Of a DNA stretch of 64,000 nt, positions 26,096 to 40,757 are shown piece after piece. Numbering within the stretch: the stretch's first letter is position 1; every line of letters begins with the position of its first letter. This DNA comes from a virus (lineage: Duplodnaviria > Caudoviricetes). The notes under the pieces were generated by a model that saw nothing but the letters and a program-made list of their open reading frames with translations, searched no databases and was not told where the DNA came from. The translations under genes and the position numbers were made by a program. The DNA is taken from positions 4,999-68,998 of IMG/VR virus record IMGVR_UViG_3300044711_000026; one strand, 5' to 3'.

Positions 26096-26166
26096 CTTTC
26101 CAATCCTCCAGTTTCAACATCATACTTATCGCATGATGCCCGGAGGCATGTCAATCCAAAAGAATA

Positions 26167-27081
26167 TCAAGCAGTAGGGAACTCGCCCCATGCCGCTCTT
26201 GGATCGTTTATACCAAAGCTATACCTTTCATAACTTTTGACCAAAAGATTATCGGTCACATTATCAACCCACATATCGCTCTCATACGGAATGCGCAGCA
26301 TGTGGATGAGCCCCTCGATGTTCGTGGTGAGGAACCACGCGAAATTCGAGGTGAGGAAGTCGAGAACGATGAAGCCCTCGGGGAGGCCGCCGGAGAGCGA
26401 CAGGATGGCGTTGACGTCGTTGTCCGCGGTGCCGGGGCGCAGCTCGGTCTTGGTGAGGCGGATCGCGACCGCTTCAAGGTTGGCCGGCACGACGAGCTTG
26501 CGTGCGCGGGCCAAGATCCTCATGCCGCGTTCGTTGACGAACTGGGCGCGAACGTTGGTCATGTTCGCGAGCAGCGTCGATTCATTCAGAGACTTCGGCG
26601 TGCTGGACGTGTTGGCCCATGTTCCACCGTCATAGGGATGTGAGGTGGAGAAGAATGCGACGCCGTCGCCGACCTGGCTCGAGTTGTAGGTCGTGCCGAG
26701 ATTGAAGATGTTGGCGGCCTGAATTTCCTTGAATTGCGCGAACGCTTCCTGGAGCTTCAGGTTGGTCGGGTTGAACTGGGCCTTGTACAGGTTGTCGTCG
26801 ATTGCCTTGCGCGTGATCGCGTAGCCAAGAGCCACTTCCACATGGATAAATGCCCAAGTGAAGCGCTCGCCAGCGTTGTTGTCGAACTGGGTTGCCGCGC
26901 CCTCGTCCTTGAGGTATGGCAGCGCCACGAACGCCATCTGAGTAGAGCGCTCGACCGCCATTGAGGACTTGTGGGTCTTGAAGACCTTGTCCCACTGACG
27001 GGGTATCATGTCGTAGCTGCCGCGGACATCGAAGAGGCCCGGAAGCAATTCCGACCGAACGTTTGCAAGTGAAATCGGCAC
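26167..27081 (-). CDS. major capsid protein
   Basis: 304 aa, AGGAGG SD + GTG; ELLPGL, EVALGYAITRKAIDDNLY, LVVPANLE, SYERYSFG..DPRAAWG. Confidence 0.9.
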   Translation of the reverse strand: MPISLANVRSELLPGLFDVRGSYDMIPRQWDKVFKTHKSSMAVERSTQMAFVALPYLKDEGAATQFDNNAGERFTWAFIHVEVALGYAITRKAIDDNLYKAQFNPTNLKLQEAFAQFKEIQAANIFNLGTTYNSSQVGDGVAFFSTSHPYDGGTWANTSSTPKSLNESTLLANMTNVRAQFVNERGMRILARARKLVVPANLEAVAIRLTKTELRPGTADNDVNAILSLSGGLPEGFIVLDFLTSNFAWFLTTNIEGLIHMLRIPYESDMWVDNVTDNLLVKSYERYSFGINDPRAAWGEFPTA

Positions 27082-27137
27082 CTATGGCCTCCTGTGTCAA
27101 CTCGGCGCCGTGGAGCGCCGCATTAGAATTGCGACGC

Positions 27138-27737
27138 TTAAACCGTACCTGTCGCACCCGCCTGGTAGAGGGTGTTGTTCATCTTCACGATGACCCAGTT
27201 GTAGTTGGTGGTCGGGTCAGAACCGTTGCCAATGCCCGGGTAGAGATACATGACCTTGAACGCGAGCGTGTTCGTGCTGGCGAGCGTCGATTGGTCGATC
27301 GTGTAAGTGGAGAATCCGCCGCCGACCGTGGTGCCGCCGGCTCCGGTGGAGAAACTGGCATTGTTTCCAACCGCGGTCGCGGGGACGGCCGTCAGGAGTG
27401 CCGCAACCTTGAACAAGGCATTGGGCGCATCAATGACGTATGCCGTTGAGTCGCCACCTGCAGCCGCTGCTGGGTACCATGGGAGCCAGCCCGGGACGCC
27501 GCCGACCGGCGTATACTGGCAGCCTTGGAAAATCCCCACCATCGTCGTCGCCGTGGTGCTAACCATCGGCTTGATGTAGTTGCCACCCGAACCAACGGAG
27601 GCGATGACCGGATCGCCGAAGAAAATGGCGGTGTGATAGGTCGACTGAATGGCGTACTTGGAAAGCTGGTAGTCGGGAGCACCCCCCGGCAGGTAGCCGA
27701 AGTGCGCGAAGCCGAACTGCGCTTGGGTGTTAGCCAT
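27138..27737 (-). CDS. capsid cement/spike-type structural protein
   Basis: MANTQAQFGF...Y.IQSTYHTAIFFGDPV...GIFQGCQY...VIDAPNALF; directly upstream of the capsid gene. Confidence 0.7.
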   Translation of the reverse strand: MANTQAQFGFAHFGYLPGGAPDYQLSKYAIQSTYHTAIFFGDPVIASVGSGGNYIKPMVSTTATTMVGIFQGCQYTPVGGVPGWLPWYPAAAAGGDSTAYVIDAPNALFKVAALLTAVPATAVGNNASFSTGAGGTTVGGGFSTYTIDQSTLASTNTLAFKVMYLYPGIGNGSDPTTNYNWVIVKMNNTLYQAGATGTV

Positions 27738-27796
27738 GACAAGCCCTTGACTTTTAAGGCCTCGTCCAGCGCTTGCCGGGGTGCGATTGCCAGAAA

Positions 27797-27881
27797 GTCA
27801 CAACGGCTTGTTGCGACAGAATGCCAAGGGACGATCTATCGTCTGCCTTTGGCTGCTCGACCTCCTGCCACAGGCGGGAGG
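27797..27881 (-). ncRNA. structured 5' leader (three consecutive hairpins) of the capsid transcript
   Basis: stems at 27861-27881, 27823-27853 and 27797-27817 (GUCGCAAC/GUUGUGAC, G-U pair only on the minus strand). Confidence 0.5.
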
Positions 27882-27896
27882 GAACTGAATTGCGGC

Positions 27897-27925
27897 AAAA
27901 TGCAAGAAGATTCAGTGATTGTCAA
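27897..27925 (-). promoter_or_regulatory. putative sigma70-type promoter for the capsid genes
   Basis: TTGACA-N17-CATTTT on the minus strand. Confidence 0.55.
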
Positions 27926-27966
27926 GTGGGGGGCAAGGCGATCACAGCCCATTCCCAGAGACTATA

Positions 27967-27994
27967 GCCCCTCCCGACTTTCGGCGAGAGGGGC
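27967..27994 (-). terminator. strong GC-rich hairpin (terminator or stabiliser; no U-tract)
   Basis: GCCCCUCUCG/CGGGAGGGGC 10-bp stem capped by C-GAAA-G. Confidence 0.45.
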
Positions 27995-28000
27995 ACTTGT

Positions 28001-28080
28001 CAAATGGGGTGGGATTCGAACCCACTATCTAAGCCACTGTTAGTTGGGCCACGCTGTACCACGCCAAGCTCCACCATTTG
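28001..28080 (-). tRNA. tRNA-like element/atypical tRNA (degenerate anticodon arm, no encoded CCA)
   Basis: perfect T-arm GUGGG-UUCGAAU-CCCAC; closing stem GUCAAAUGG/CCAUUUGAC; D-like arm GCU..UGGUAC..AGC; ~79 nt. Confidence 0.55.
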
Positions 28081-28114
28081 ACTTGTTCTTATTGCCGCTG
28101 GCAGCATTGCAAAC

Positions 28115-28930
28115 CTACAGCCCCAGCGCCGCAACGATCTTGGGTACGAAAAGATCAGCGCCGGCATCGTGTCCAGCCCCCGTCAAATGGGTAAGGTCAA
28201 CCTGTCGATAGACAAGCCCGGTCAACGAATCCAAATTCGCCCCTTGAAATACATTGATCCCGTTCGGAGCAGCGTCCTGCGCAGCCTGCACAGCCGTGCT
28301 GACTGCGCCATTGATGAGCGTGCATTTCGAGATCATCCACGGGACGCCATCCCCAGGTGTGGCAATGACCTGAGCGAGCGAGGCTGTGTAAGCAGCCTGC
28401 GAGGTGTTGAGGGGGTTGTTGTCGGTTTCGCCCTGTATCCAGATGTAGAGGCTGGCCGCAAGCCCTCTGGATGCGAGGATTTGCGGAACGAGTGCCAGAC
28501 GTCTGTTCAGGACCCCGCCTGTCGCCCATCGCGCTACTGGCGTCCCGCCGTAGCAGATCGGAACGAGAATAACGCGCTGACAATAGCCGCCATTGATCAG
28601 CTTGTCGGCAATCCGCCCGGCTATATTGCCGCAAGTCGCTGACGATCGGATCGTGCAGCCTAGCAGCGGGTCAACGGCCTTGTACGTTCCGCCATCGAAA
28701 ATATTGAAGTTGTCAACCTTGTCCGCGTTGGTCGGGGTATAGGCCACACTGCCAGAATTCGCGCCGTTCGATTGGCCCACGGTAACGAGAACGAGGGTCT
28801 TTTCGCCCGGGTTAAGCTGCGGCGATCTGGTTTCCTTTCCAACTGGGTAGCGGTTGCTGCCCCACGGGATCTGGTCAAGGTCCTCGGGGACGATAAACGG
28901 ATAGCCCGCCGAGGCCACTCCCCTCATCAT
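28115..28930 (-). CDS. SGNH carbohydrate esterase (sialate O-acetylesterase/CE6-like)
   Basis: VGQSNG, WIQGETDN, DLTHLTGAG; ATGA-coupled start. Confidence 0.85.
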   Translation of the reverse strand: MMRGVASAGYPFIVPEDLDQIPWGSNRYPVGKETRSPQLNPGEKTLVLVTVGQSNGANSGSVAYTPTNADKVDNFNIFDGGTYKAVDPLLGCTIRSSATCGNIAGRIADKLINGGYCQRVILVPICYGGTPVARWATGGVLNRRLALVPQILASRGLAASLYIWIQGETDNNPLNTSQAAYTASLAQVIATPGDGVPWMISKCTLINGAVSTAVQAAQDAAPNGINVFQGANLDSLTGLVYRQVDLTHLTGAGHDAGADLFVPKIVAALGL

Positions 28931-29895
28931 CCCCAGAACTCCAACTGCAAGCCCGAGCGATGCACGGCGGCTCCAGCGTTGTTCCCATACCATGTCTGTG
29001 TATCCGGCGTGACTCCAGCACCTCTTTCCTGCCAGATTATTTGATGCCAGCCAAGGCCCGGATAGCCCTTGTAGAAGCTTTGGCACGTCACAATAGGTGA
29101 GTTAGTGCACTGCACAAACGTACTGCGCCCGCTGTTGACTGTGGTGCTGTCTATGCCGATTCCTGCGGCGACCGTGCGCGGTGTGGTGGTGGAGTTCTGC
29201 ACGACGTTGAACGCTTCTGCCGTCATCAGCACGCTTGGAAGACCGAACAGCGTTTCTACTTGGTTGGCAGCCCCAACATTGGCCGAATTGACTTGACGGA
29301 AGCTAGACGCTGAATGATCCCAGTTTGTTCCTGCCTCTTGGACCAAGCCACAGCGTTGCGCGATCTGCCAGGCATTGAACACGAGCCGCTTCAGTGCCGT
29401 ATCGCCAGCCTGGCCGTCAGCTATTGGCCGGAATGATCCAATATAGGTCGCGCAATTCGCAGCCACGGTCATGGTGCTGCCACTCGCAGACCCGTACCGG
29501 ATCGTAATTGCGTTGGCGTTGGTCCAGATGCCGTTGACGAGGTGGATCTCGGTAGACCCAACACCAGTTCCTCGAAGAATATTTGAACCTGGATTGGCGC
29601 CAGCAGTCCAATCAGGACCGGTGCCGACACGAGCGGCTCCAGACCCATCCAGAACAGCAAACAGATCGAAGTTCTTTCCAGCCTGATGATAACCGACATG
29701 ACCGGAGTTGTTATCGAGTGCCAAGGCAAGGTCAGACGCAACCGTGTAGAGCCGAAACCTCGAGCCGTCATGGATCGGCAACCTGCAGCCATCGACAGGC
29801 GTCGCGTAAATGTTGGTCACGCCAGAGACGTCGGCGGTCGTATTCGCAACACCCGGCGTCAACGTGATCCGAACTTGCGGGGCGACCTTTGTCAT
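28927..29895 (-). CDS. tail-fibre/spike-like protein
   Basis: RITLTPGV..TADVSG.TNIYATP..G..LPIHDG, NFDLFAV, TYIGSFR, FNAW, YPGLGWH..W.E; coupled to flanking genes. Confidence 0.6.
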   Translation of the reverse strand: MTKVAPQVRITLTPGVANTTADVSGVTNIYATPVDGCRLPIHDGSRFRLYTVASDLALALDNNSGHVGYHQAGKNFDLFAVLDGSGAARVGTGPDWTAGANPGSNILRGTGVGSTEIHLVNGIWTNANAITIRYGSASGSTMTVAANCATYIGSFRPIADGQAGDTALKRLVFNAWQIAQRCGLVQEAGTNWDHSASSFRQVNSANVGAANQVETLFGLPSVLMTAEAFNVVQNSTTTPRTVAAGIGIDSTTVNSGRSTFVQCTNSPIVTCQSFYKGYPGLGWHQIIWQERGAGVTPDTQTWYGNNAGAAVHRSGLQLEFWG

Positions 29896-30662
29896 CACGC
29901 CGCCGGCAGCATGGCGATTTGCGCTGCGTCCATAGGCACGACGGGTGCCATCTGCTGTTGCTGGGCCTGAGCCTCGACCACGTCGAGATACCTCCCGCAA
30001 TAGTCGAACGGGCCGACATGGCTCATCTTATGCCCGATGTTGGCCCACACCGATCCGCCGCACTGACCCCACCGGATACAGAACGAGAGGTCTTCAGAGA
30101 TCAACCCCCGATCCGGAACGTCCATCTTTTCGAACAGCCGGAGCAGGCGATTCGTCCCCGCCTGACGCAGGGTTTCGCCGGCCGGGTGCAGGGTCAAACG
30201 GGTGTCAATCAGTTCGGGAAACTTCTCTACCATCTTGGTGATAGCGTCACGGCGGATCAGAGTGCAGCCGAAGCCAACGCCTTCTACGCGCATGAAATCG
30301 CCTCGGCGCTCGGTCAGTGGCGTGCCGCTGCCTGAGCCGGCCCAGGACAGTGGCATCTTGCGCTGAGGGTAGACGGTGCCAACAACGGCCTCGTTGAACA
30401 GCACCATGTCGCTCACGAGTTCCGGGGGAAAGCCCATGTCTGCATCGATGAACAGGATGTGGCTGCTGTTGGGCATCGTGTCATACCAAATCGTCGTAAA
30501 CATTGACCGCAGCTCGGCGATATCAGGGAACGACAAAGTCGTAATTCCTCCACCGATCCCCTTCTGCATAAGGTGCTGACGCAAGGCGTGGGTCGTAAGG
30601 AACGTGGTTGCCGTCACGACTTGCCCGAAGGCCGGAACGCAGATCAAAATATCAGTAGCCAT
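29895..30662 (-). CDS. glycosyltransferase, GT-A fold (phage GT2-like)
   Basis: ILICVPA, HILFIDADMGF (DxD), GVGFGCTLIRR, SEDLSFC..W...GG..W, SHVG. Confidence 0.85.
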   Translation of the reverse strand: MATDILICVPAFGQVVTATTFLTTHALRQHLMQKGIGGGITTLSFPDIAELRSMFTTIWYDTMPNSSHILFIDADMGFPPELVSDMVLFNEAVVGTVYPQRKMPLSWAGSGSGTPLTERRGDFMRVEGVGFGCTLIRRDAITKMVEKFPELIDTRLTLHPAGETLRQAGTNRLLRLFEKMDVPDRGLISEDLSFCIRWGQCGGSVWANIGHKMSHVGPFDYCGRYLDVVEAQAQQQQMAPVVPMDAAQIAMLPAA

Positions 30663-30853
30663 TACGAAACACCCCTCTTGGTGGATTGATCAAGGCCCTC
30701 GTCTTGAGGCCGAAAAACATGCACAAATCCTATTGCGTCTGCCTTCGCTGCCTTACGCAAGCCCGGCGTATATGGCTCGTCTGATGGAATGCGCGGCCGA
30801 CTCGTCACTCCAAATTGAGGACGATAGACAGGTTTCCGAGGTGGCTCGCTCAT
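30662..30853 (-). CDS. small hypothetical protein
   Basis: 63 aa coupled on both sides. Confidence 0.45.
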   Translation of the reverse strand: MSEPPRKPVYRPQFGVTSRPRIPSDEPYTPGLRKAAKADAIGFVHVFRPQDEGLDQSTKRGVS

Positions 30854-31536
30854 TTTGGAGCCTTTATGTTGGAAAAGAAAATGTCCGTGGCTTCCTTGCT
30901 CCGCTCCATGGCCTCGGTAAGGACAAGGGCGTAATCACGGGGGATGCTGAAATCGAGCGGGGACTGTCGGTGCACCACGTTGATGCGATCGGTCCAGATC
31001 ATGTAGGTGTTCCAATATCTGGCGTCCTGCCTCAGGAGCGTATCAATCGCCGCTTCGTCGAATTTCAGGTACTCCACGAATGGGTATTTCGAGATGAACC
31101 GCAGTTCGTCACCGAGCACCCACGCCATGAAACGATGATGATGATAGCCGCGGAACGGAGGTGAGCCGCCGTCAACGCCCCGCCCCAGTTCTGCCATCGG
31201 TGACGGCGTCTCGACATAGCCGGCCTTGGCTACGCGGCTCATCTCGGCGCAAAGCGGGAAAGGGTTGTACATGTCCTCCAAAACGTGACGCGCGATGACG
31301 AAATCAAACTCCTTGTCCTTGAACGGCAGAGGCTCCGTTGCCACGTCGCACTTGACGAAGTTCTTGACGCCCTGCACGTCGACAAAATCGACCGACACAT
31401 CAGCCCGCTTGAACGGAGCTGTACCAGGGCCGATCTCTAGCACCCTCGCATCGGCAGGAATCACCACGTTGGTGAGGTAGTCGTAGACGCTCTGAATCGG
31501 AGGCCAATGCTTCTTGTCGTTTTGGGTGAGAGCCAT
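30850..31536 (-). CDS. class I SAM-dependent methyltransferase
   Basis: RVLEIGPG, DVATEPLPFKDKEFDFVIARHVLE, EMSRVAKAGYVETP. Confidence 0.9.
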   Translation of the reverse strand: MALTQNDKKHWPPIQSVYDYLTNVVIPADARVLEIGPGTAPFKRADVSVDFVDVQGVKNFVKCDVATEPLPFKDKEFDFVIARHVLEDMYNPFPLCAEMSRVAKAGYVETPSPMAELGRGVDGGSPPFRGYHHHRFMAWVLGDELRFISKYPFVEYLKFDEAAIDTLLRQDARYWNTYMIWTDRINVVHRQSPLDFSIPRDYALVLTEAMERSKEATDIFFSNIKAPK

Positions 31537-31548
31537 CAAAAAGTCCTG

Positions 31549-32706
31549 TCAGAGAAACTCAGCGTGATCCGGGGTCTTCGTTGTGGGGAAGTCTACCTTC
31601 CCTTCCTTCCAATCAAATAGCCATTGATTGGTGTGGGTTTGCAAGCACTGGGTACCACAGCGCTCCCGGGGGTCGAACTGATCGCTGGCGAGATAGCGGA
31701 CCATTTCCCAGTATCTGTCACTGGCGAAGATGTCCCGGAAGCGCGTGCTGACGATCGAATCGACGTGAAATTTCTTGAACTTCTCGTTGAAGTGGAAGCC
31801 GCAGCTTGTGATGAGGCCATTTCCACTCATCTGAAGCTGGAAAGGAACGCCGAGGCACCGGCTGTAATGACGTTTGCCTTCATCTGCCAGCCGAGCCCAC
31901 TTCACGACAACGCGAAACGTCTCATCTCCCATCTTCTCAACTTCGCGGAAGGTATCGTACAGCGCGTCATACTTCTTGTAGTCGACACCAAGGTGGCCCT
32001 CGTCGTTGTCGCTGCAGTGCTTGTAGATCAGATACCCCGGGCGTATCTCCTGCGCCAACTTCGCAAGCGGCATGATTTGATCGTGGAACTGGGGCATGGT
32101 GACCATTTGCATGTTCACGACGCACGGCAGATTATCTCGGCGCACGATCTCCATTGCGTCCTTGACGTTCTGGATAACCTGCCAATAGTCCCGCTCCTTG
32201 AGGCCCATGATCTCCTTGTAGCGAGGCATTTCGCCGGCCGAGAAGTTGAACCTCAGATAGGTGATGTGTGGAAGGATTCGCTCCAGAACCTTCTTCTTGA
32301 GCCGCACACCATTCGTCCCGATGCCGATCTTGATTCCGAGAGAAGCGGCATATTCGATCGATTCCTCGTACCACGGGACAACCGTCGATTCGCCGTCGCT
32401 GATGAGGCTGATGCCCTTGACGCCGATTTCTGCAGCGTCCTCCAAAAACTCGAATGCGTGCTTCTTGGTGATCTCGCCGCCGTCTTCAGACGCCTGCATC
32501 GTCGCGAAACAAAAAACGCACGCTGCATTGCACTTGCGCGTCCAGGCTACGTCCATCGTGACCGGCGCTATCCGTTCACCACGGTCCCACGCCAGAACGC
32601 GGTCTTTCCACCAGCCGACCTTGCTCGCATCGAGAATTAGGTCGTTGACCGAGATGGCGGGAGACCCCGTGACGACGTGATCGAAGAACTCCGGAAGATT
32701 GCTCAT
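31549..32706 (-). CDS. radical SAM enzyme with SPASM/twitch-like C-terminus
   Basis: CNAACVFC (CxxxCxxC), SDGES, RCLGVPFQLQMSGNGLITSCG, CGTQC. Confidence 0.9.
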   Translation of the reverse strand: MSNLPEFFDHVVTGSPAISVNDLILDASKVGWWKDRVLAWDRGERIAPVTMDVAWTRKCNAACVFCFATMQASEDGGEITKKHAFEFLEDAAEIGVKGISLISDGESTVVPWYEESIEYAASLGIKIGIGTNGVRLKKKVLERILPHITYLRFNFSAGEMPRYKEIMGLKERDYWQVIQNVKDAMEIVRRDNLPCVVNMQMVTMPQFHDQIMPLAKLAQEIRPGYLIYKHCSDNDEGHLGVDYKKYDALYDTFREVEKMGDETFRVVVKWARLADEGKRHYSRCLGVPFQLQMSGNGLITSCGFHFNEKFKKFHVDSIVSTRFRDIFASDRYWEMVRYLASDQFDPRERCGTQCLQTHTNQWLFDWKEGKVDFPTTKTPDHAEFL

Positions 32707-32900
32707 ATGCGCTTTCTTTCTTCTTCGGTCATGAGGTTCCTAAGCTTCGAATCGTCGGCCATCGTCTCTTTGAACACCTCGATCGGTAGCCCCGTGGACT
32801 CACGTAGGTACTTCTCCAGATCGAACATGAGCTTGGCCTGAAGCGATCCCTTGATCTTCGGGCCGAACTTCATGATGATCTCGTAATCCTTGTTAGCCAT
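32703..32900 (-). CDS. small hypothetical protein
   Basis: 65 aa, coupled. Confidence 0.5.
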   Translation of the reverse strand: MANKDYEIIMKFGPKIKGSLQAKLMFDLEKYLRESTGLPIEVFKETMADDSKLRNLMTEEERKRI

Positions 32901-33435
32901 TGGCCCTCTGATCCTTATACCGATCGGTGTACTCCACGAGTAGGGTCGACCGATGGGAATTAAGCGCTTTCACGTATTCCGGGACGATGTCGGCCTCGTC
33001 CCTCAGCTCGACGATGTCCGTTGTTCTCAGCATGAGACGAAACGCCGCTGTGAAATCGTCGTCATGCTGAGGTCCCGGATTGAACGGGGACGTGCTCGGG
33101 GTCGCGGTTCGGATGATCACCTTTGGCCGGTACTCGGAATACAGGCTCAGCCGGTCTAGATGACTAACTATCTGATTTGTCGCGCAAATCAAGAAGTTCC
33201 ATCTAGGGTAAGTACATACCGGGATGAACCCTTGCAGCGACATGCCGATCGCCATGCCCATCTGCATGTCCTCAGCCACGGGCATTTCGATCCGCTTCTC
33301 TGGAGCGATGCCACGGAAGGACGGAGCCAAGGTCGTACCATCGTAGCCGACTCCTTGACCCATAAAGATGACACGGTCGTCGCTGGCCAGGGTCTGCATC
33401 GCAAGGCAGAGTTGATCGAAGTAGGATGATGTCAT
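32893..33435 (-). CDS. TPP-enzyme beta subunit (transketolase/E1-beta pyrimidine-binding domain only)
   Basis: VIFMGQGV, EMPVAEDMQMGMAIGMSLQG, NQIVSHLD, GPQH; 180 aa, C-terminal domain absent. Confidence 0.85.
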   Translation of the reverse strand: MTSSYFDQLCLAMQTLASDDRVIFMGQGVGYDGTTLAPSFRGIAPEKRIEMPVAEDMQMGMAIGMSLQGFIPVCTYPRWNFLICATNQIVSHLDRLSLYSEYRPKVIIRTATPSTSPFNPGPQHDDDFTAAFRLMLRTTDIVELRDEADIVPEYVKALNSHRSTLLVEYTDRYKDQRANG

Positions 33436-33443
33436 TTTTTTAT

Positions 33444-33629
33444 CTAAACGTCGTCTGACTTGTTAGGCATAAGATGAGCCATGAGGACCTCAAGCCTCTT
33501 TACTCTATCCTCAAGCGTCGGCCCGGCCGGCTCAGGCGCTTGGATTGAGCATCTGCAAGTTCTTGGATGATCATAACATCCAAACGGATGGTGCGGGCAT
33601 TCACATACATGAGTTTCAAAAACTGACAT
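33444..33629 (-). CDS. small Cys/His protein
   Basis: CECPHHPFGC..HPRTCRC. Confidence 0.45.
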   Translation of the reverse strand: MSVFETHVCECPHHPFGCYDHPRTCRCSIQAPEPAGPTLEDRVKRLEVLMAHLMPNKSDDV

Positions 33630-34197
33630 GGCGTCCGATCCCAACATGCGGCCTCGTCAACTCATACCGATAGCTAATATGCGGCGAGTGGCCACACCGG
33701 CCCCAGACTTCCTTGGTGTCCGTGCAGACAGACTTGCCGTTGTCCTCCGTCACGAAGTTGATTGGCAGTTCATGCCCATGAGCGTAGCGCATCGTCTCGC
33801 TGATGATCCCTGCCCTCGCCGTCATGTCGCCCATAAAAACCCACACCTTGCCGGGCTTGTCGCTGCGCTTGAGTCCCCAGGCGATGCCCATGGCAATCGG
33901 AGCGATGCCGCCGACGATAGCGGAAGAAATAACACGATATTTCGGGAAACACAGCGCGATCGAATGACCGGCCAAGATAGCGGCCTTCAGTTCTTCGGGT
34001 GGCACGCCGGCCAATAGCGCATGGTAATGCATACGCCAGCCCCCACAAATATAATCGTGCTCCAAGTCAACGCGCTCGAATAGGTCAATAAGCTGCTGTT
34101 CGTTGCCTCCGGCCAAATGAAGCGGCGAACGGATCTGGCCCGCCTCAAACAAGGCTGCCATCTCGGCTTCGAAGGCTAGGAGGTCTTGCGGGGTCAT
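33616..34197 (-). CDS. TPP-dependent E1-alpha-like subunit
   Basis: PLHLAGGNE, WRMHYHALLAG, SAIVGG..PIAMGIAW, TPP motif GDM...EDNG. Confidence 0.85.
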   Translation of the reverse strand: MTPQDLLAFEAEMAALFEAGQIRSPLHLAGGNEQQLIDLFERVDLEHDYICGGWRMHYHALLAGVPPEELKAAILAGHSIALCFPKYRVISSAIVGGIAPIAMGIAWGLKRSDKPGKVWVFMGDMTARAGIISETMRYAHGHELPINFVTEDNGKSVCTDTKEVWGRCGHSPHISYRYELTRPHVGIGRHVSF

Positions 34198-34460
34198 GTA
34201 ATCCAATCCGATTTATCGTCAATCAGAACAGCATGCGACATGCCCATAGGCTTTACTGGAACTCCGCACGCATTGAGTTGGCAACGGACCCACTCCATGC
34301 ATTCGTCTCGGTCCTCGGGGATTCGATCCCGGAAATGGACGCGGCTCAAGCACTCAAACATCACGTCCAGAATCTTCTGAGACCGTTCTTTTTCGTTCAC
34401 TGAACCATCCCCAGCGCCTTGCCAATCCGATACAGGACCAAGCTTCGATCGATCCGCCAT
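34194..34460 (-). CDS. hypothetical protein
   Basis: 88 aa, ATGA-coupled. Confidence 0.5.
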   Translation of the reverse strand: MADRSKLGPVSDWQGAGDGSVNEKERSQKILDVMFECLSRVHFRDRIPEDRDECMEWVRCQLNACGVPVKPMGMSHAVLIDDKSDWIT

Positions 34461-34545
34461 CCTCTATGCTCCAAGCGGTAGTGCAGGAGGCTGTGGCTGG
34501 TCGTGTCGAGGAAGTGGTGGGGGATTTTCACTTGCTTTTGCTGCA

Positions 34546-34749
34546 TCATAGGTGGCTGCTCGGTTGGCCAATCCCAATGAAAAGATCATCAGGATTTATG
34601 GATGTGGCTCTTATAAATTCCTGTATATCTGAAATAATAGGATTTAACTCATCAAGGGCTTGGCAAGCCAGAGTCTCTCCGCCATCCTGCATTATCACAA
34701 GGAGTGATTTGACTTCTATTAGCCTATTAAGCGCATCCCTTACATTCAT
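34546..34749 (-). CDS. AT-rich hypothetical protein
   Basis: 67 aa, coupled to gmhA, visibly AT-rich codons. Confidence 0.4.
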   Translation of the reverse strand: MNVRDALNRLIEVKSLLVIMQDGGETLACQALDELNPIISDIQEFIRATSINPDDLFIGIGQPSSHL

Positions 34750-35333
34750 TTGGATTTGTCCTTCTCAATTACTTCGTCCAAGATCGAATGAAGGATAGCT
34801 AGGTGCGCAATCTCAACAGTGCCATACTGGTTGGACGGAACGTAGAAGTTAACTTGGCCCTTGGTCCGCAGGAAGTTGCCAACGCCAAATCCGCTCAGCG
34901 TGACCAGGTTCATCCGCATGCCGACAGCCACATCAGCCGCGCGTAGGATGTCCTCACTCATGCCAGAACTCGAGATCGCGAACAGCACGTCCCCGAGCTG
35001 GCCGTGTCGAACGATCATCTCGGAATAGATCCGGTCAAACCCGTAGTCGTTGCCGTAGCAGCTCATGAGGGCGGAATCAGGCGGGCCGAACGTCGGAAAG
35101 CCGCCATTCTTCTGGTAGTCAGTTGCGCAGTGTGAAGCGATCGCCGCCGACCCGCCGTTGCCGATGAAGAACAAACGCGACTTCTGCAACCCGTATTGCG
35201 TGATGAGGTTGTGGACGGCCTGATAGCCACCTGCCTCGACTTGGGTGCCGGACAAAGCGTCAGACAGCAGATTGAAGCTACCGCGCTCAAATTTCATTGC
35301 AGGGTAAGAAGCGTATGCTTCCGCGTCGTTCAT
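34746..35333 (-). CDS. gmhA: phosphoheptose (sedoheptulose-7-P) isomerase, SIS domain
   Basis: FIGNGGSAAIASH, GNDYGFDRIY, GDVLFAISSSG.S..IL.A, YG.VE..HL.ILH. Confidence 0.9.
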   Translation of the reverse strand: MNDAEAYASYPAMKFERGSFNLLSDALSGTQVEAGGYQAVHNLITQYGLQKSRLFFIGNGGSAAIASHCATDYQKNGGFPTFGPPDSALMSCYGNDYGFDRIYSEMIVRHGQLGDVLFAISSSGMSEDILRAADVAVGMRMNLVTLSGFGVGNFLRTKGQVNFYVPSNQYGTVEIAHLAILHSILDEVIEKDKSK

Positions 35334-35662
35334 TTAAGGGCCTCATCAATCATCCGTTCCCATATGGACTCACACTGGCCTGCCGGCTCTCCCCCTTCAG
35401 CCCCCGCATCCTTCATTGCGTCAGTAGGTTTGCGCATGGCCTCAATCACAGCGATAGCATTAAGACCGATCACTCGTTGCTGACATGAAATGCTGTCACT
35501 GCACATTTCAAAAACGGTAGGGTGAGTTATTTCGGAAACCGGCTTATCCTCGCAGGACTTTATAAACGCATGACTATCGTAAACATACCAACTTCCATCA
35601 GTCGACGGATAACTAGCATAATGGTTGAGCACCTCGCAGACCCTTTCCATCAACTCATTCAT
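35330..35662 (-). CDS. phage hypothetical protein (EAMRxPTxAM family)
   Basis: C-terminus AVIEAMRKPTDAM...WERMIDEALK shared with 54979..55230. Confidence 0.6.
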   Translation of the reverse strand: MNELMERVCEVLNHYASYPSTDGSWYVYDSHAFIKSCEDKPVSEITHPTVFEMCSDSISCQQRVIGLNAIAVIEAMRKPTDAMKDAGAEGGEPAGQCESIWERMIDEALK

Positions 35663-37053
35663 GCCAGCAACGCCTCCAACGTTTGCAAAATCTCATCCCG
35701 CCCAACGTGGCGTTTATGCCCGAGGATGGACACCTTGATTGCACCCACAATGTTCCCCACCAGCGCGGCGCATGCCAGGTCAAGCCCAGCGGCCACCAGC
35801 GGCGCGGTTACAGCCATCACGGCATCTCCCGCCCCCATCGTGTCTATGCCACCGATCGCCAATGCTGGGGCTGTCTCATGCTTCCAGTTAGATTGAGCCG
35901 GAGATGTTGTCATATCGAACCATTGCGACCCATAACGCCCATGCGTAATCAACCATTTCCTGCAATCAATTTTGTGGGACAATGACGAAACTACAAAGCT
36001 TGGCACGCATTCACTTGCAGGCATTCCAGACGCCAATCTAGCTTCCGGCTCGTCTATGCAGATATAATCAACCTTCGGATACTTCGTCACCAGATTGAAC
36101 CCGTAATTACCAGCATTGGTCTGGCTATTTACGGCTAGAAACCTCGATCCCCTCAATTGATAGCGCTCGATATCCCCAAGAAGGCCATGACCAAAATCGT
36201 TGACAACAACCACATCAGCCGTAGCGACGACACTTCCCAGTTTATCGCGGAACGCTGCGCGGCAATCCTCGGTCATCTCGATTTCACGGGACGAATAGAC
36301 GTCGAACAGCTTGCGATTAAAGTCGGAGTCTACGAATCGGGTCTTTGAAATACCTGTGCTGCGTGGATGGCTCAGGTAATCCACGTTCTTCCATTCGCCA
36401 TGCTTCATCGCAGCCAGAACGCCACCCTCGAACGCATCTGACCCGGTCTCCACCGTAGCCAGCATCAGTTCCTTGGACGCCCGGCCCAGCCCCTGCACAT
36501 AGCGGTAGACATCAAGGATGATCTCTCCGACAAACAGGACCTTCAGTCTGTCAGCCCTGTCGAAGGCCTCAAGGATCTTGTCCCTGGCACCTATGTTCTT
36601 CATGAAGTCCAGGTATTGGCAGACGTCTTCGGAGAACGTCTCGCCCTTCAATATCCGGGAGGATGACCACTTGTGGCTCCCCGTGATCTTCATCTTGCCG
36701 CCAACCTCCGCAATGGCCTCGCGCTCCTTGGCAAGTCCCGGATTGGTCGATCCTGCATAGTCCACGCCCTTGACGTAGAAGTTTGGCCTGAGCCTGCGAA
36801 TCAGGTCCCACGCCCCCTCCTCATCGTTGACAATAACCTCGTCCACACAGCCAAGCGCACGAACTGATTCGGCCCGCTGCTCTGCATTGAAATGAGGCCG
36901 TCCCATGCCCTTCTTGACGAACCGATCGGATACGACAGAGACCACGAGCCAATCGCCGAACTTCGCAGCCTCCTGCAAATGGCGGATGTGGCCGAGGTGC
37001 AGGAGGTCCCAGACGCCGTGACACAGGACGATGGTGCGAGGGTTGATGATCAT
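35659..37053 (-). CDS. bifunctional sugar nucleotidyltransferase + PfkB kinase (HldE/RfaE-like, reversed domain order)
   Basis: N-terminal HGVWDLLHLGHIRHL (HxGH), KGVDY, WSSSRI; C-terminal VNDFGHG, DTMGAGD. Confidence 0.9.
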   Translation of the reverse strand: MIINPRTIVLCHGVWDLLHLGHIRHLQEAAKFGDWLVVSVVSDRFVKKGMGRPHFNAEQRAESVRALGCVDEVIVNDEEGAWDLIRRLRPNFYVKGVDYAGSTNPGLAKEREAIAEVGGKMKITGSHKWSSSRILKGETFSEDVCQYLDFMKNIGARDKILEAFDRADRLKVLFVGEIILDVYRYVQGLGRASKELMLATVETGSDAFEGGVLAAMKHGEWKNVDYLSHPRSTGISKTRFVDSDFNRKLFDVYSSREIEMTEDCRAAFRDKLGSVVATADVVVVNDFGHGLLGDIERYQLRGSRFLAVNSQTNAGNYGFNLVTKYPKVDYICIDEPEARLASGMPASECVPSFVVSSLSHKIDCRKWLITHGRYGSQWFDMTTSPAQSNWKHETAPALAIGGIDTMGAGDAVMAVTAPLVAAGLDLACAALVGNIVGAIKVSILGHKRHVGRDEILQTLEALLA

Positions 37054-37292
37054 GTGCTGCTGCCGTCTTGAGACGTTTCCCAACGGAACGTATCGCAATA
37101 GAAGGCGTAGAACTTCTCTTGCATGTCTCGACGGGCACGGGCTTCTGCAACTGTCAGCGCAGGATCGGAAACGATCGGGCGCACGTCGAGCACGCGCTTG
37201 AGTTGCTTCAGCGCCCGGAATAGATCAGCCGCGTCATCGTCTCTAAGGTTGCTTTCGAGCGTTACCACAAATCCTGCTATTCGGTCTGTCAT
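37050..37292 (-). CDS. hypothetical protein
   Basis: 80 aa, ATGA overlaps on both sides. Confidence 0.55.
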   Translation of the reverse strand: MTDRIAGFVVTLESNLRDDDAADLFRALKQLKRVLDVRPIVSDPALTVAEARARRDMQEKFYAFYCDTFRWETSQDGSST

Positions 37293-38212
37293 ACTGTCCT
37301 CGGCAATAGGAATTTTCGGAACATGTCCTGCTCTTGCTCCGGCATGCCGTAGTCCTCCAGCAGCCGCGGAATCAGCGCAATCGCTCGCTGCTTCACCCGG
37401 TTGTACCTCTCGTCAGGAGGAAGATTTCCGGCCCATTGCGAGAGCTGATTGTCTTGCGCCCGCACCCCGGAATTGATCATACGCGACCTGACCTCGATCA
37501 ACGGGTGGCGGGTCTTGAGCAAGTCAATCTGCCACTGCGGCGTGGAGGCGCGGAAGTCCTCGTGGTCCATGATGTCGTGGGCCTGCTTGCGCCGCATCAG
37601 ATACGCCGCGTCAAAGAACGTGGCCCACCACCCCGGTTCCCGCATTTCCTGCGTGATGCCGGGTTTGGACTGATCCGTGCGGATGTTGGCGAACGAGATG
37701 CGGCCAATGATCCTGGCCAGATCGTCTGTCCAGTGATCCACGAACCAATACGGGAACAGCGGCGGGAAGATCACCCCGCCCATCAACTCACAGAGCTTGC
37801 GTGTCGGCGCTACCGCTCCGGAGAACGACAGGTTGGCGAGATGGCCGTAGACCATCCCTATGGAATCTGGAAATCGCTTCGCGGCCTCGATGATAAGGGT
37901 ATCGTACCCAGGTGTGACGTACGGATCATCGTCGGCTGCGACAAGATAGACGTCTGCTGGCTCGGTGAGAGCCCGATTCCACTTGTCCGCAATTGTGTCT
38001 TCTCGCGGGCGTATATTCGAAACAACTCGCGAATCGATAACACACGGGAGGTCATTGAGGAGTCGACAAGTTTGCTCCAGAGTTGGGTCATCGTCATCAA
38101 GCTGTACCTGCATGATGGTCTCCGGATGAGACCAATTGGCATACGACCGTTGAATGGTATCAATGAGCCGATCCGGACGGCCTCGCGTAGCCATTGAGAT
38201 AACAAGTTTCAA
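37289..38212 (-). CDS. glycosyltransferase family 2-like
   Basis: ISMATRGRP, VQLDDDD, AADDDPY..PGYD, PYWFVDHW; TTG start with AAAGGA SD. Confidence 0.8.
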   Translation of the reverse strand: MKLVISMATRGRPDRLIDTIQRSYANWSHPETIMQVQLDDDDPTLEQTCRLLNDLPCVIDSRVVSNIRPREDTIADKWNRALTEPADVYLVAADDDPYVTPGYDTLIIEAAKRFPDSIGMVYGHLANLSFSGAVAPTRKLCELMGGVIFPPLFPYWFVDHWTDDLARIIGRISFANIRTDQSKPGITQEMREPGWWATFFDAAYLMRRKQAHDIMDHEDFRASTPQWQIDLLKTRHPLIEVRSRMINSGVRAQDNQLSQWAGNLPPDERYNRVKQRAIALIPRLLEDYGMPEQEQDMFRKFLLPRTV

Positions 38213-38255
38213 GGAGCATTCCTTTCAAAGGCGCAGCGTGCGGCCCGTAGTTTGA

Positions 38256-38966
38256 TTATTCCCCGTCGTCGACCTGATAGGAGCGCTGATTATTGATATT
38301 CAGAACATCCAAGCTCTTGTCAATCTGCATGCGGATGCCACCTCCCGTGCCGCGGTACTTGCCGTTCATTTCGAAGCCGTCGCCCAGATCCTTCTTCACA
38401 CCGGCCAACTTCAGGCTTTCGTTCCGGTCGCTGATGAGCTGGCGCGCGTTGCGGATGTCTTCGGCCTGTGCTTCCTCGGTCAGGACCGTGGGACGCTCCA
38501 TGAGCATCTGCTGACCGCGGATGATGTTGCCCTTGCTACCCTTGGGGACGAGCGTGCCGGCGTAGCGCTCGGCTGGAACAGGGCGCCAGCCGTTCTGGTG
38601 CATCATGTGGTTCTGATCGAGAAGGATTTCCGAGTTGCCGGCGACGCTTACCGAGTTCCACTGGTAGGACCAGTTTTTGGGAATCATGTCCTGTGGGATG
38701 TCGAAGATGTCGCCAACCTGCGTGCGGGTACGGGACAGCACCTCGCCGTCACGGCCGGTAACCTCCACGCGACCGTTCGGGCGTGTGCGGATTTCACCAC
38801 GGGTCGCCGTCCGCGCCGCCGCCACGGGCTCGTTCTGATAGATCGGGGCTTTCTTAACCTGACGGGTGACGGGTTCGGCCTGTGCCGCCCGTGCTGCTCG
38901 AGCAGCCTTGCTGCGGCCGTCGATCTTCTGCTCTGTGGATTTCACGATCTCAGGTTCGTCATTCAT
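38256..38966 (-). CDS. conserved head-module protein (after scaffold)
   Basis: FDIPQDMIPKNWSYQW, NGWRPVPA, GQQMLMERP. Confidence 0.7.
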   Translation of the reverse strand: MNDEPEIVKSTEQKIDGRSKAARAARAAQAEPVTRQVKKAPIYQNEPVAAARTATRGEIRTRPNGRVEVTGRDGEVLSRTRTQVGDIFDIPQDMIPKNWSYQWNSVSVAGNSEILLDQNHMMHQNGWRPVPAERYAGTLVPKGSKGNIIRGQQMLMERPTVLTEEAQAEDIRNARQLISDRNESLKLAGVKKDLGDGFEMNGKYRGTGGGIRMQIDKSLDVLNINNQRSYQVDDGE

Positions 38967-38976
38967 AGTCCGTCTC

Positions 38977-39540
38977 CTAAGCTTCAACCGAGATCAAATT
39001 GAACAGCCACTTGAGCCAGCCATATTTCACGACAAATCGTTTCGGCATGGTCGAGAACATCAGCTTTCCACCATGACATCCGACGATGATGGACGGGTCT
39101 TTTTCTTCGGCAATCTGCTTGACCCGCCACGCTGCGTACTGAGAACTGCTCAGGCTCATGGACTTGGCCGTCTCGATCTCAAACGCGGACAGGTTGATGC
39201 GAGAAACCAGATCAATCGAAATATCCCGGCCAGATCCTGAGTTGATGACGGCTTGATCCATTTCTTTGTCGCGTGCGATTTTCGACACGTCGCGAATGCG
39301 CTCCATAAGAACCTGACCGCCGACAGAGATTTCATCGTTGCTATCGCCGCGATATCGCCCACGGAAATGCTGCTCCAGCCTTCCGTAAGGAACTCGCGTC
39401 CACCCGGCGTCCAGCATCGACTGTAATTGTTTGTCGATCTGCCCGAACGATTTCTTGGCGACCCACTGATATATCATCCCCGGTGGGATAAGATGCGCGG
39501 GAATCTCATAAGGGTCCTGATGCTTTATGGATGATCCCAT
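38977..39540 (-). CDS. paralogue of 38256..38966
   Basis: YEIPAHLIPPGMIYQW, AGWTRVP, GGQVLMER. Confidence 0.7.
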   Translation of the reverse strand: MGSSIKHQDPYEIPAHLIPPGMIYQWVAKKSFGQIDKQLQSMLDAGWTRVPYGRLEQHFRGRYRGDSNDEISVGGQVLMERIRDVSKIARDKEMDQAVINSGSGRDISIDLVSRINLSAFEIETAKSMSLSSSQYAAWRVKQIAEEKDPSIIVGCHGGKLMFSTMPKRFVVKYGWLKWLFNLISVEA

Positions 39541-39541
39541 G

Positions 39542-40519
39542 TTACCCTTCCGTGAAGCTTCGGTCATAAGCGCCTTGCTGCTGCAGCTTCAGCTTGCGCC
39601 GCGCGAACTCCTGCAGGCCGATCGGATCGCCCTTCTTGAACTTCCCGCTTGGATCTGAGTAGTTCCAAATGTGGGTGCCGTCCTGAGCGGCAGCGGCCTC
39701 CCGTGCAGTCAGCGAAACAGTCGGGGATGAGCCACCACCATTGGTCGACACAGCCGCGCCAGGAGCCACGGGAGGCGCTGGCGAGCGCTTCTGCTGCTGC
39801 GTAGTGACCTGCGCCGCTTCGGTCGGATCGGCCGCCTTCTTGCCGATTCCGAGGTATTCCTCGACCCGCGCGAAATATTCCGGCGTATCTGGGATGAGGT
39901 CTTCAGCCTGTGCCACGGCATCGGCCGCGGTCAGCTTCTTCAGGCCCTTTTCGCTCCGGACATATTCGGGATGGGCTCGCACCCAAGCTGCCGTAGGTGG
40001 CGTGCGATTCGCCGCGAAGATTTCGACCGGATCGGTTGACTTTACTTCTTCGGTTTCTCTCTTCGGGGCCTTGGCTCGCGCCTCCATGTCGGACTTGGCT
40101 TCGTCGAGCCGCATTTCCGTGGAGCGCGCTTTGGCGAGGCGGTCTTGCGCTTCGACTTCCGCATCAATATCGCCCGCCGCCTTGGCTACTCGTATGTCAC
40201 GCTTGGCGCGCTCGGCGTCTTCCTGCGCAGCGCTCAGGGCCGTTGTAATGGTGTCAAGATGGCTGGACGTGGCGCGCTTGTTCGCTGACTCAGCCTCGCG
40301 CTTGTGACGTGCGGCTTCTCGTTCTGCCTCGATTCGGCGCCGCTCCTGCTCGGCCGCGCGTGTCTCCAGGTCCTTGTACTGCGCCATCAGGTCTTGGACG
40401 GCGGGGTCAGCCTTGACCTCGATCTTGGGCGCTTCAGTCTTTACGACTTCTGCCGCACCCTCAACGTTGGCGACCTCGTCAGGGATGATGTTGATGGAGA
40501 TTTCGTCGTCAATCGTCAT
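39542..40519 (-). CDS. capsid scaffolding protein
   Basis: acidic N-terminus, long coiled coil, AWVRAHPEY, PPVAP, short C-terminal helix. Confidence 0.75.
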   Translation of the reverse strand: MTIDDEISINIIPDEVANVEGAAEVVKTEAPKIEVKADPAVQDLMAQYKDLETRAAEQERRRIEAEREAARHKREAESANKRATSSHLDTITTALSAAQEDAERAKRDIRVAKAAGDIDAEVEAQDRLAKARSTEMRLDEAKSDMEARAKAPKRETEEVKSTDPVEIFAANRTPPTAAWVRAHPEYVRSEKGLKKLTAADAVAQAEDLIPDTPEYFARVEEYLGIGKKAADPTEAAQVTTQQQKRSPAPPVAPGAAVSTNGGGSSPTVSLTAREAAAAQDGTHIWNYSDPSGKFKKGDPIGLQEFARRKLKLQQQGAYDRSFTEG

Positions 40520-40522
40520 ATT

Positions 40523-40741
40523 TCAAAATCCCATCCACGGCGGCATTGGATCTTCTGAACTGAGATTTGATGATTTCCTGAAATCCATGCCTGACAGGGC
40601 TCTTTCCAGTTTCCGCAACGGATGTTCAGAAGGAAACTTTTCCACTCCAATCTCCGTCATGAGAAGGCGAAGCTCTATGGCATAAGACATTGCATCAAGA
40701 ACATTGATGGAAACGCTTTTGGAGATTTCGTCGTCAGCCAC
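40523..40741 (-). CDS. hypothetical protein
   Basis: 72 aa in an AT-richer patch. Confidence 0.45.
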   Translation of the reverse strand: MADDEISKSVSINVLDAMSYAIELRLLMTEIGVEKFPSEHPLRKLERALSGMDFRKSSNLSSEDPMPPWMGF

Positions 40742-40757
40742 TATCGGTCCCTTTTCA

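Follow-up and report, generated by a model that had tools for sequence, protein, structure and literature searches.

A conserved, soluble glycan cassette in the head operon of a 69-kb tailed phage, tentatively assigned to glycosylation of phage proteins

The stretch of DNA analysed here (64,000 nt, referred to as the window) spans bases 4999-68998 of the 68,998-bp virus record IMGVR_UViG_3300044711_000026, a tailed phage, and carries inside its head operon a cluster of genes for the synthesis and transfer of a sugar; coordinates below are those of the window unless stated otherwise. It is tentatively proposed, with a confidence that falls just short of an even chance, that this cluster is a conserved, wholly cytoplasmic phage glycan cassette, used in late infection for glycosylation of the virion or of other phage proteins; its product is most likely an unusual branched, methylated seven-carbon sugar. 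Because the record is rated 100% complete by CheckV, the cluster is phage-resident, and the window is most of this phage genome of about 69 kb. An earlier note made from the sequence alone (the first-pass annotation) had described a co-oriented, largely translationally coupled gene run between the scaffold and capsid genes, resident in the phage and not a host island, and had read it as a pathway to a nucleotide sugar, with two glycosyltransferases, that forms part of the late head operon. This description is borne out by the present analysis: all genes of the run lie on the minus strand, p243 (downstream of the scaffold-like gene) stands on one side and p199 with the major capsid gene on the other, and adjoining genes overlap by 4 nt at nine junctions, by 1 nt at two and by 8 nt at one, so that translational coupling is plausible. 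The enzyme identities given in that note gained support in part. Hidden Markov model (HMM) searches of Pfam, PHROG and NCBIfam gave family support for every enzyme (nucleotidyltransferase-kinase, isomerase, thiamine diphosphate pair, radical S-adenosylmethionine enzyme, methyltransferase and esterase) except the two glycosyltransferases, which are recognised through their fold, while all NCBIfam scores for cassette enzymes lie far under the curated cut-offs and the heptose assignment stays below threshold. The genes of the cassette and its borders are, in order of transcription:

38256-38966, minus strand: p243, conserved head-module protein and upstream border of the slot that holds the cassette; in about 45 relatives p199 and the capsid gene come directly next
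37289-38194, minus strand: GT1, soluble glycosyltransferase of predicted GT-A fold (similar to GT2-family enzymes) with a DDDP motif
35659-37053, minus strand: NT-kinase, a nucleotidyltransferase (N-terminal) fused to a PfkB kinase (C-terminal)
34746-35333, minus strand: SIS-domain sugar-phosphate isomerase, GmhA-like
33616-34197, minus strand: thiamine diphosphate (ThDP) alpha protein, E1-alpha-type PP domain only, 193 aa
32893-33435, minus strand: ThDP beta protein of 180 aa, a lone PYR domain that lacks the C-terminal domain of transketolase
32703-32900, minus strand: s65, 65-aa partner of the radical S-adenosylmethionine (SAM) enzyme, motif GDDSKLR..MT.E.R..L
31549-32706, minus strand: radical SAM enzyme
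30850-31536, minus strand: class I SAM-dependent methyltransferase
29895-30662, minus strand: GT2, soluble glycosyltransferase of predicted GT-A fold (Anp1/Mnn9-like) with an IDADM motif
27138-27737, minus strand: p199, conserved Gly/Ala/Thr-rich protein just upstream of the capsid gene and downstream border of the slot
26167-27081, minus strand: major capsid protein (MCP), Mu gpT-like, by Pfam Mu-like_gpT and phrog_371

With the NT-kinase, the radical SAM enzyme and the capsid protein as queries, IMG/VR yielded about 100 loci, and the synteny check that the first-pass annotation had suggested found the gene order kept in about 20 distinct viral contigs, which share p243, GT1, NT-kinase, SIS isomerase, ThDP alpha, ThDP beta, s65, radical SAM enzyme, methyltransferase, GT2, p199 and capsid in this succession. 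Across these contigs the identities of the cassette enzymes fall to 40-60%, those of the capsid protein being 85-98%. Megablast against 50,697 phage records gave no match to the 10-kb cluster. The slot is empty in the wider family, represented by about 45 contigs that have both borders and a capsid protein about 60% identical; there p199 follows only about 200 bp after p243, and it is likewise the next gene after p243 in the database phages MW202675 and HTVC023P. Within the sub-clade whose capsid proteins are at least 82% identical, the slot is occupied to different degrees: by GT2 alone (L040), by nothing other than a GT2 fused to an FkbM-family methyltransferase (L041, 7608-9206; L042, 821-2530), by GT2 plus GT1 (L037 and L039) or by the full pathway, which takes up 7.5-12.6 kb in the other contigs. 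GT2 is present in 14 of the 16 contigs that have an MCP at least 82% identical and a complete slot. With its constant place just upstream of p199 and the capsid gene, this graded series forms the strongest argument for a functional link between the cassette and the phage head. As a separate observation, portal, scaffold, p243, p199 and p418 (a gene beyond the capsid gene) drop to 35-55% identity within this sub-clade, yet its capsid proteins are 85-98% identical.

The two glycosyltransferases have no Pfam match, and their sequence profiles found nothing significant in the PDB; a fold search was therefore used, in which AlphaFold models built with alignments of phage homologues were compared by Foldseek. 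GT1, which matches a PHROG glycosyltransferase family at 7e-6 and has an invariant D88-D90 pair (alignment A1), gave a model with a predicted local distance difference test score (pLDDT) of 90, whose top matches were the GT2-family enzymes PcManGT, TarS, RmlT and TarP at probability 1.0. GT2 matches phrog_1574 at 3e-14, has invariant D73 and D75 and was modelled at pLDDT 80; its Foldseek matches, also at probability 1.0, were the glycosyltransferase domain of LH3, STIV A197, COLGALT1, Mnn9 and the PBCV-1 capsid glycosyltransferase A64R. The TM-scores of the matches of both proteins are about 0.3-0.55, and the DxD motifs (DDDP in GT1, IDAD in GT2) are invariant, so both proteins are, to judge from the models, GT-A fold glycosyltransferases. 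The nearest Atlas clusters of GT2 are 81-100% viral and related pelagiphages carry GT2-like genes within their structural modules; a tblastn search of GT1 against the phage records gave no match. All cassette proteins have 0 transmembrane segments.

Soluble, cytoplasmic glycosyltransferases of a phage could also act on its DNA, glycosylating the bases as a protection against restriction, and hypermodification of DNA with a variety of glycans is indeed known for glycosyltransferases that viruses encode (Pyle et al. 2024, as cited in PMC12619734). For this phage such a role is very improbable: the complete genome has no gene of the thymidylate-synthase/hydroxymethylase family (PF00303), and ten scanned window open reading frames (ORFs) outside the tail-head block gave no DNA polymerase or nucleotide-metabolism module, the finds being RecT, a DNA methyltransferase and terminase subunits. 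Furthermore, the cassette is located in the head operon and both transferases have the predicted GT-A fold, with the alpha- and beta-glucosyltransferases of T4 not among the Foldseek matches listed.

With regard to the sugar itself, the suggestion of a heptose comes from the weak similarity of two enzymes to heptose-pathway proteins. The NT-kinase matches Pfam CTP_transf_like (1e-14) and PfkB (6e-9), and among named families it comes closest to the two halves of HldE, joined in reverse; this domain order is also found in a bacterial homologue; the NCBIfam models HldE (2e-29), rfaE_dom_II (8e-29) and rfaE_dom_I (2e-16) are all matched below cut-off (102 bits against a cut-off of 521 for HldE), and against the PDB the kinase part finds HldA at only 5e-4. 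The SIS isomerase matches Pfam SIS_2 and, at about 1e-22 and below cut-off, the NCBIfam GmhA models (79.6 bits for the best one, against a cut-off of 265), while its 11 best PDB matches are all phosphoheptose isomerases, the top one at 2e-18. Since every NCBIfam score is far below its curated cut-off, 'heptose' should be taken as a best guess from sequence likeness and not as family membership. The likeness is to the ADP-heptose pathway of lipopolysaccharide core synthesis in Gram-negative bacteria (GmhA, HldE or HldA plus HldC, GmhB) and lies in three parts: the GmhA-like SIS isomerase, the PfkB kinase, which matches heptose-7-phosphate kinase best, and the nucleotidyltransferase of cytidylyltransferase fold, which matches HldE domain II best. 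The cassette differs from that pathway in scores far below the curated cut-offs, in the reversed domain order, in having neither GmhB nor HldD and in the tailoring enzymes, foreign to the ADP-heptose pathway, that come next.

The first of these tailoring enzymes is the ThDP pair, which the first-pass annotation had taken for an enzyme that adds C2 branches, and comparison among phages now lends support to that view. The alpha protein matches Pfam E1_dh, phrog_34187 (3e-46) and, as a profile against the PDB, the E1 alpha subunit of pyruvate dehydrogenase (4e-12), with an invariant ThDP motif GDM...N-G; the beta protein matches Pfam Transket_pyr, the C-terminal half of phrog_34187 and E1 beta in the PDB (3e-10), with an invariant P-V-x-E. 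The ThDP-binding and catalytic Glu motifs are thus present in the E1 alpha PP and E1 beta PYR domains, as in enzymes of the AviB1/B2 type. The cassettes of L008, L016, L021, L022 and L033 are without the E1-type pair and carry, just after the radical SAM gene, a protein of 560-593 aa with TPP_enzyme_N, M and C domains, which in L016 matches JanthE (PDB 8rph) at 1e-107 as against 8e-76 for the best acetolactate synthase (AHAS); JanthE is YerE-like by description (PMC12188165). The pair and the YerE-like enzyme belong to the same cassette position class and never co-occur (23 loci, about 20 contigs), and both the AviB1/AviB2-type pair and the single enzyme YerE have been reported to add a C-4 acetyl branch from pyruvate to rare sugars (PMC4753412). 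This non-orthologous replacement in sister cassettes supports a role of the ThDP pair as a putative C2-branching carboligase. The pair thus resembles AviB1/AviB2 and Pau11/Pau12, which are E1-type pairs with intact ThDP motifs as here, and its stead in sister cassettes is taken by a likeness of YerE, a single AHAS-like enzyme; it differs from the known C-branching enzymes in that its subunits consist of no more than the PP domain (193 aa) and the PYR domain (180 aa) and in that the cassette has no 4,6-dehydratase to furnish a keto substrate, the constant neighbour being a radical SAM enzyme. The idea that the pair is a miniature transketolase supplying sedoheptulose-7-phosphate was rejected, the PDB profile matches being E1 enzymes and not transketolase, and it is also countered by the sister cassettes that swap the pair for a YerE-like carboligase. 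Genes for E2 or E3 were noticed neither in the cassette nor among the scanned window ORFs, although no search was aimed at them.

The radical SAM enzyme (Pfam Radical_SAM, 1e-14) has the CxxxCxxC motif (C59, C63, C66) and four further cysteines, C284, C302, C350 and C354, that are invariant in an alignment of 15 sequences (A3) and therefore suggest an auxiliary iron-sulfur cluster of the twitch/SPASM kind. Its best matches are weak and include viperin-like enzymes (49.8 bits against a cut-off of 180), TYW1 (3.5e-5 in the PDB) and SkfB, and it reaches the curated cut-off of none of the named subfamilies BtrN, DesII, TYW1 and viperin. Its gene is a constant neighbour of the carboligase, also in the 735-kb phage LR756501, and an SDR dehydratase is absent from the cassette, although the carboligase requires a keto sugar; these reasons make the radical SAM enzyme a natural candidate for the step that forms the keto group, in analogy to BtrN or DesII. 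The methyltransferase next to it matches Pfam Methyltransf_11 (1.5e-7) and is kept in all full cassettes.

Upstream of the radical SAM gene lies s65 in 15 of 15 aligned loci, its stop overlapping the radical SAM start in most of them, and an s65-like ORF also precedes several bacterial radical SAM homologues. The first-pass annotation had counted the small ORFs interleaved in the cluster as ordinary phage filler, and this holds for six of them (s80, s110, s67a, s88, s67b and s63), which are unconserved and scattered through the cluster: none has a family match, and in related cassettes full-length homologues were found for none of s80, s110, s67a, s88 and s67b and in a single case (L012) for s63. 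It does not hold for s65, the only small ORF of this kind that is conserved, which for its part belongs to no known family. A complex of s65 with the radical SAM enzyme was predicted with an interface score (ipSAE) of 0.88, the highest of three controls being 0.00; of 80 solved complexes 58 scored as high as 0.88, of 110 mismatched pairs 2. The pLDDT of the partners was at least 77 and contact agreement among runs at least 80%. In this model the invariant s65 segment 41-51 (including D49-S51) lies against residues 57-59 and 68-75 of the enzyme, at the cluster loop. The prediction supports binding of s65 to the radical SAM enzyme, for which it may serve as a lid subunit, a role as substrate being less likely.

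If s65 were a substrate or carrier modified by the radical SAM enzyme, the cassette could be seen as making a glycosylated, methylated peptide- or nucleotide-derived small molecule, loosely like mycofactocin. Such an interpretation would fit the strict coupling of s65 to the radical SAM gene in phages and bacteria, the placing of residues 41-51 at the cluster loop in the predicted complex and the peptide-modifying SPASM enzymes among the weak radical SAM relatives. It is nonetheless improbable, given that the bacterial pair of s65 and radical SAM gene sits inside ordinary nucleotide-sugar clusters with SDR, DegT and E1 genes, that s65 has no Cys, leader-core layout or protease partner, and that the slots with GT2 alone or with GT1 and GT2 lack both s65 and the radical SAM gene, so that the glycosyltransferases have an acceptor otherwise.

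A pathway can be put forward in which the enzyme families, folds and motifs, the synteny, the ThDP swap and the lack of membrane components are observed, and the order of the steps, the sugar, the part of the radical SAM enzyme and the acceptor are inferred. The GmhA-like isomerase would convert a ketose phosphate, most likely sedoheptulose-7-phosphate, and the fused kinase and nucleotidyltransferase would activate the product to a nucleoside diphosphate (NDP)-heptose-type sugar, with a host phosphatase supplying the GmhB step. The radical SAM enzyme, with s65 over its active site, may then oxidise or dehydrate the sugar to a keto intermediate, to which the minimised E1-type ThDP enzyme would add a two-carbon branch (acetyl or hydroxyethyl) from pyruvate, and the methyltransferase would methylate the branched sugar. 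Finally, the two phage-specific GT-A transferases could attach the sugar to a cytoplasmic acceptor, or build a short glycan on it, the most likely acceptors being the head proteins encoded in the same operon, namely p199, the capsid protein or p418.

Bacteria have counterparts of the core of this pathway. Radical SAM homologues with 38-53% identity occur on large chromosomal contigs of Pelagibacteraceae, other Alpha- and Gammaproteobacteria, cyanobacteria and others, and within about 8 kb these loci usually have E1 alpha and beta genes and the nucleotidyltransferase-PfkB fusion, and often a SIS gene. For example, an alphaproteobacterial contig from a single amplified genome (L117, 1-13251) begins with a GT2, an SDR dehydratase, a nucleotidyltransferase-PfkB fusion in the phage domain order, an SDR gene and two DegT aminotransferases and continues with full-length E1 alpha and beta, an s65-like ORF and the radical SAM gene; about 20 other bacterial loci of this kind were seen, and they are common in Pelagibacteraceae. 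Likeness to these loci, in SAR11 as in other bacteria, thus extends to the fusion, the E1 pair, the s65-like ORF, the radical SAM enzyme and sometimes the SIS isomerase, whereas in the bacteria the E1 subunits are of full length and the loci also encode SDR dehydratases, DegT aminotransferases and a GT2 of their own; homologues of the phage GT1 and GT2 were found in none of the bacterial loci examined. On this comparison the phage core is a trimmed version of a bacterial surface-sugar pathway that is itself uncharacterised.

This kinship is one ground for thinking of host envelope remodelling, in which the rare sugar would be fed into lipid-linked precursors of lipopolysaccharide (LPS), capsule or exopolysaccharide at the cytoplasmic face of the inner membrane and exported by host flippases, the changed surface for example stopping progeny or competing phages from adsorbing to cells and debris. 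In addition to a biosynthetic core that copies a bacterial cell-surface sugar pathway, the structural neighbours TarS, TarP and RmlT of GT1 modify cell-wall polymers from the cytoplasm, and in the cyanophages S-SM2 and P-TIM68 gene clusters that bear an LPS annotation contain a fused mini-E1 along with a kinase, a nucleotidyltransferase and GmhA (PMC3037559). These and similar clusters of T4-like cyanophages (P-SSM2 type) resemble the cassette in carrying, on a phage, a mini-E1 (fused there), a carbohydrate kinase, a heptose nucleotidyltransferase, a phosphoheptose isomerase and glycosyltransferases, but they belong to myoviruses of 190 kb, where they occupy hypervariable regions close to hli or tRNA genes, and they encode many SDR enzymes, and no radical SAM match was found in S-SM2 or P-TIM68, whereas here a compact cassette is fixed inside the head operon of a 69-kb phage; the function of the cyanophage clusters is likewise not known (PMC3037559). 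We consider envelope remodelling unlikely, though deserving of serious attention. Neither integrase nor resolvase was found in the complete genome, so that lysogenic conversion is unlikely, and the cassette has no flippase, polymerase, Gtr-type or other membrane protein. Neither GT1 nor GT2 occurs in the bacterial loci, and the family of GT2 consists mostly of viral proteins; late expression coupled with the head genes would be odd timing for a surface change, and a stage with GT2 alone in a fixed slot of the head module is hard to account for in this manner. The Gtr-type and O-antigen seroconversion systems, which go with membrane components (GtrA, GtrB, GtrC, Wzy or acetyltransferase) and a temperate lifestyle, differ from the cassette in the same respects, as its proteins have no transmembrane segment and its genome has no integrase or resolvase.

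The soluble enzymes, the lack of any flippase, polymerase or Gtr component and of an integrase, the coupling to head genes, the phage-specific glycosyltransferases, the stage with GT2 alone and the GT2-like genes of pelagiphages together point to an acceptor that is made by the phage in the cytoplasm, for which we infer the virion to be the leading candidate. As far as is known, mycobacteriophages use host sugar donors for such decoration, whereas the cassette here would make its own. In mycobacteriophages (Freeman et al. 2023, as summarised in PMC12619734), soluble phage glycosyltransferases, with methyltransferases nearby in some relatives, have been proposed to decorate virion proteins; the same source places the glycans on the C-termini of capsid and tail-tube proteins, and the present phage differs in having no such tails. 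A more specific version of the proposal holds that in a lineage of tailed phages virion glycosylation is autonomous, the phage making its own C-branched methylated heptose nucleotide by means of a new radical SAM enzyme with a small subunit and a minimal ThDP carboligase, and that the system grew stepwise from a lone glycosyltransferase of the capsid module to a full pathway, its chemistry varying between sisters in the manner of an arms race; this version is held as a possibility, well below certainty and somewhat under even odds.

Several observations weigh against glycosylation of phage proteins by this cassette. The first-pass annotation had seen acceptors in the Ser/Thr-rich virion proteins, and the richness is real (Ser plus Thr 18-27%), but p199 and the capsid protein contain as much Ser and Thr in relatives that lack any glycosyltransferase as in those that bear one. 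Mycobacteriophage capsid glycans are on C-terminal tails (PMC12619734); the C-termini of MCP and p199 have no extension or Ser/Thr tail specific to the phages that bear glycosyltransferases. As regards the sugar, the heptose assignment lies under every curated cut-off, the radical SAM enzyme fits no named subfamily that would indicate its chemistry, and a GmhB-type or HAD phosphatase, whose lack the first-pass annotation had remarked, is missing from the complete genome (no TIGR00213 or HAD_2 match at E up to 1). The slot is empty in L048 in spite of 87% MCP identity, and the slot also takes up unrelated cargo: a fibre gene and an esterase gene in the window, HNH endonucleases, a TROVE/vWA gene in L007 and, in L043, an unrelated protein of 292 aa, which was ruled out as a diverged GT1 or GT2. 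The slot may therefore simply be an insertion hot spot. In L022, moreover, a phage of a different backbone, a cassette with GT1 only lies between the replication genes and the terminase and portal genes, and such a cassette away from the capsid genes would suit envelope remodelling.

Recombination at a hot spot is also at work, because of the unrelated cargo and the sharp jumps in identity between neighbouring genes, which suggest endonuclease-driven mosaicism: against the nearest relative the radical SAM enzyme is 98.7% identical and the adjacent methyltransferase 73%. In the closest relative, L007 (IMGVR_UViG_3300010401_000036), a TROVE/Ro60-like protein with a vWA domain (18814-20118) replaces the fibre and the esterase. 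Homing-type endonuclease genes of the HNH and EndoVII kinds follow just after the capsid gene in the window (24956-26095), and endonucleases of this type also occur inside the cassette in relatives (L007, 15958-16485; L008, 12409-13023; L011, 11833-12345).

Two genes between GT2 and p199 had been taken by the first-pass annotation as members of the system:

28927-29895, minus strand: tail-fibre-like protein, outside the conserved cassette
28115-28993, minus strand: carbohydrate esterase of the SASA family with a Tat-like (twin-arginine) signal peptide, outside the conserved cassette

This membership is contradicted by their distribution, as both are missing from all related cassettes and the pair recurs beside an HNH gene in an unrelated viral contig of 44 kb (L134, 5126-6888), with its gene order kept and with 65% identity. 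The two genes form a separate mobile pair outside the glycosylation system. Agrobacterium phage Rivra and Pseudanabaena phage Pam5 (tail spike) encode homologues of the fibre-like protein within their tail modules. The esterase (Pfam SASA, 1e-7) is read in another frame that starts 66 nt inside the fibre gene; its start at 28993 gives the N-terminus MVWEQRWSRRAS..VGVLG.MRG.ASA, which is conserved in L134 despite the overlap with the 3' end of the fibre gene and resembles a twin-arginine signal peptide (SRRAS...ASA) with an AxA cleavage site. The esterase is therefore probably exported, which suggests the periplasm as its destination, and the pair indicates that this phage also acts on envelope carbohydrates; an esterase with an export signal adjoining the cassette in the window is a further point in favour of envelope remodelling.

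There are weak hints that the host is an alphaproteobacterium of soil. A contig binned in a Rhizobiales metagenome-assembled genome (L108, CAIZGQ010000073.1, 67,107 bp) is a phage of this type with the full cassette and a capsid protein 93% identical, the sole sequencing run listed that contains the full DNA is a soil metagenome, which may be its source (no RNA run containing it is listed), and the fibre-like gene has relatives in Agrobacterium and Rhizobium phages. The binning of L108 is in itself either a weak host hint or an artefact.

A literature search found no paper that describes the cassette, its nearest described counterparts being the cyanophage 'LPS' clusters and the virion glycosylation of mycobacteriophages. 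Should the proposal be true, tailed phages would join chloroviruses and mimiviruses as makers of their own rare sugars coating the particles, which matters for how phages in soil are recognised, how stable they are and which hosts they infect. The cassette would offer a compact, soluble route to branched higher sugars, in which the ThDP carboligase is minimal and the radical SAM enzyme, uncharacterised so far, has a partner of 65 aa, and solving the phage pathway would annotate the same core in abundant bacteria such as SAR11.

The minus strand carries nearly all long ORFs located from about 6.6 to 51 kb, and transcription on the head side runs through the large terminase, the portal, a GroES-like gene, a coiled-coil scaffold-like gene and the paralogues p196 and p243 to the cluster, after which come p199, the major capsid gene, the HNH/EndoVII endonuclease genes, p418 and then the adaptor and tail genes. 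The features upstream of p243 that were placed are:

49113-50867, minus strand: large terminase
44465-46750, minus strand: portal
39542-40519, minus strand: coiled-coil scaffold-like protein, by a position as in relatives and a charged, Ala-rich sequence

The major capsid protein is 61% identical to the annotated MCP of MW202675. Homologues of p199 stand at the same position in HTVC023P and MW202675; p199 has no Pfam match even at E 1, and an Atlas lead to 'phage cement', weak with a score of only 0.82, makes a cement or decoration protein possible. Promoter- and terminator-like sites did not occur above chance, ARAGORN found no tRNA and Rfam no family within 25000-45000. A non-coding gap of 377 nt between the esterase and p199 (27738-28114), in which a tRNA-like element had earlier been noted and in which neither ARAGORN nor Rfam finds anything, is the largest in the operon, and the corresponding gap between GT2 and p199 measures about 100-400 nt in relatives. 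Lastly, the final 50 bases of the contig (68949-68998 of the record) recur at record bases 415-464, as the final 100 bases do not, which may be a short repeat of the terminal regions or a feature of the assembly.

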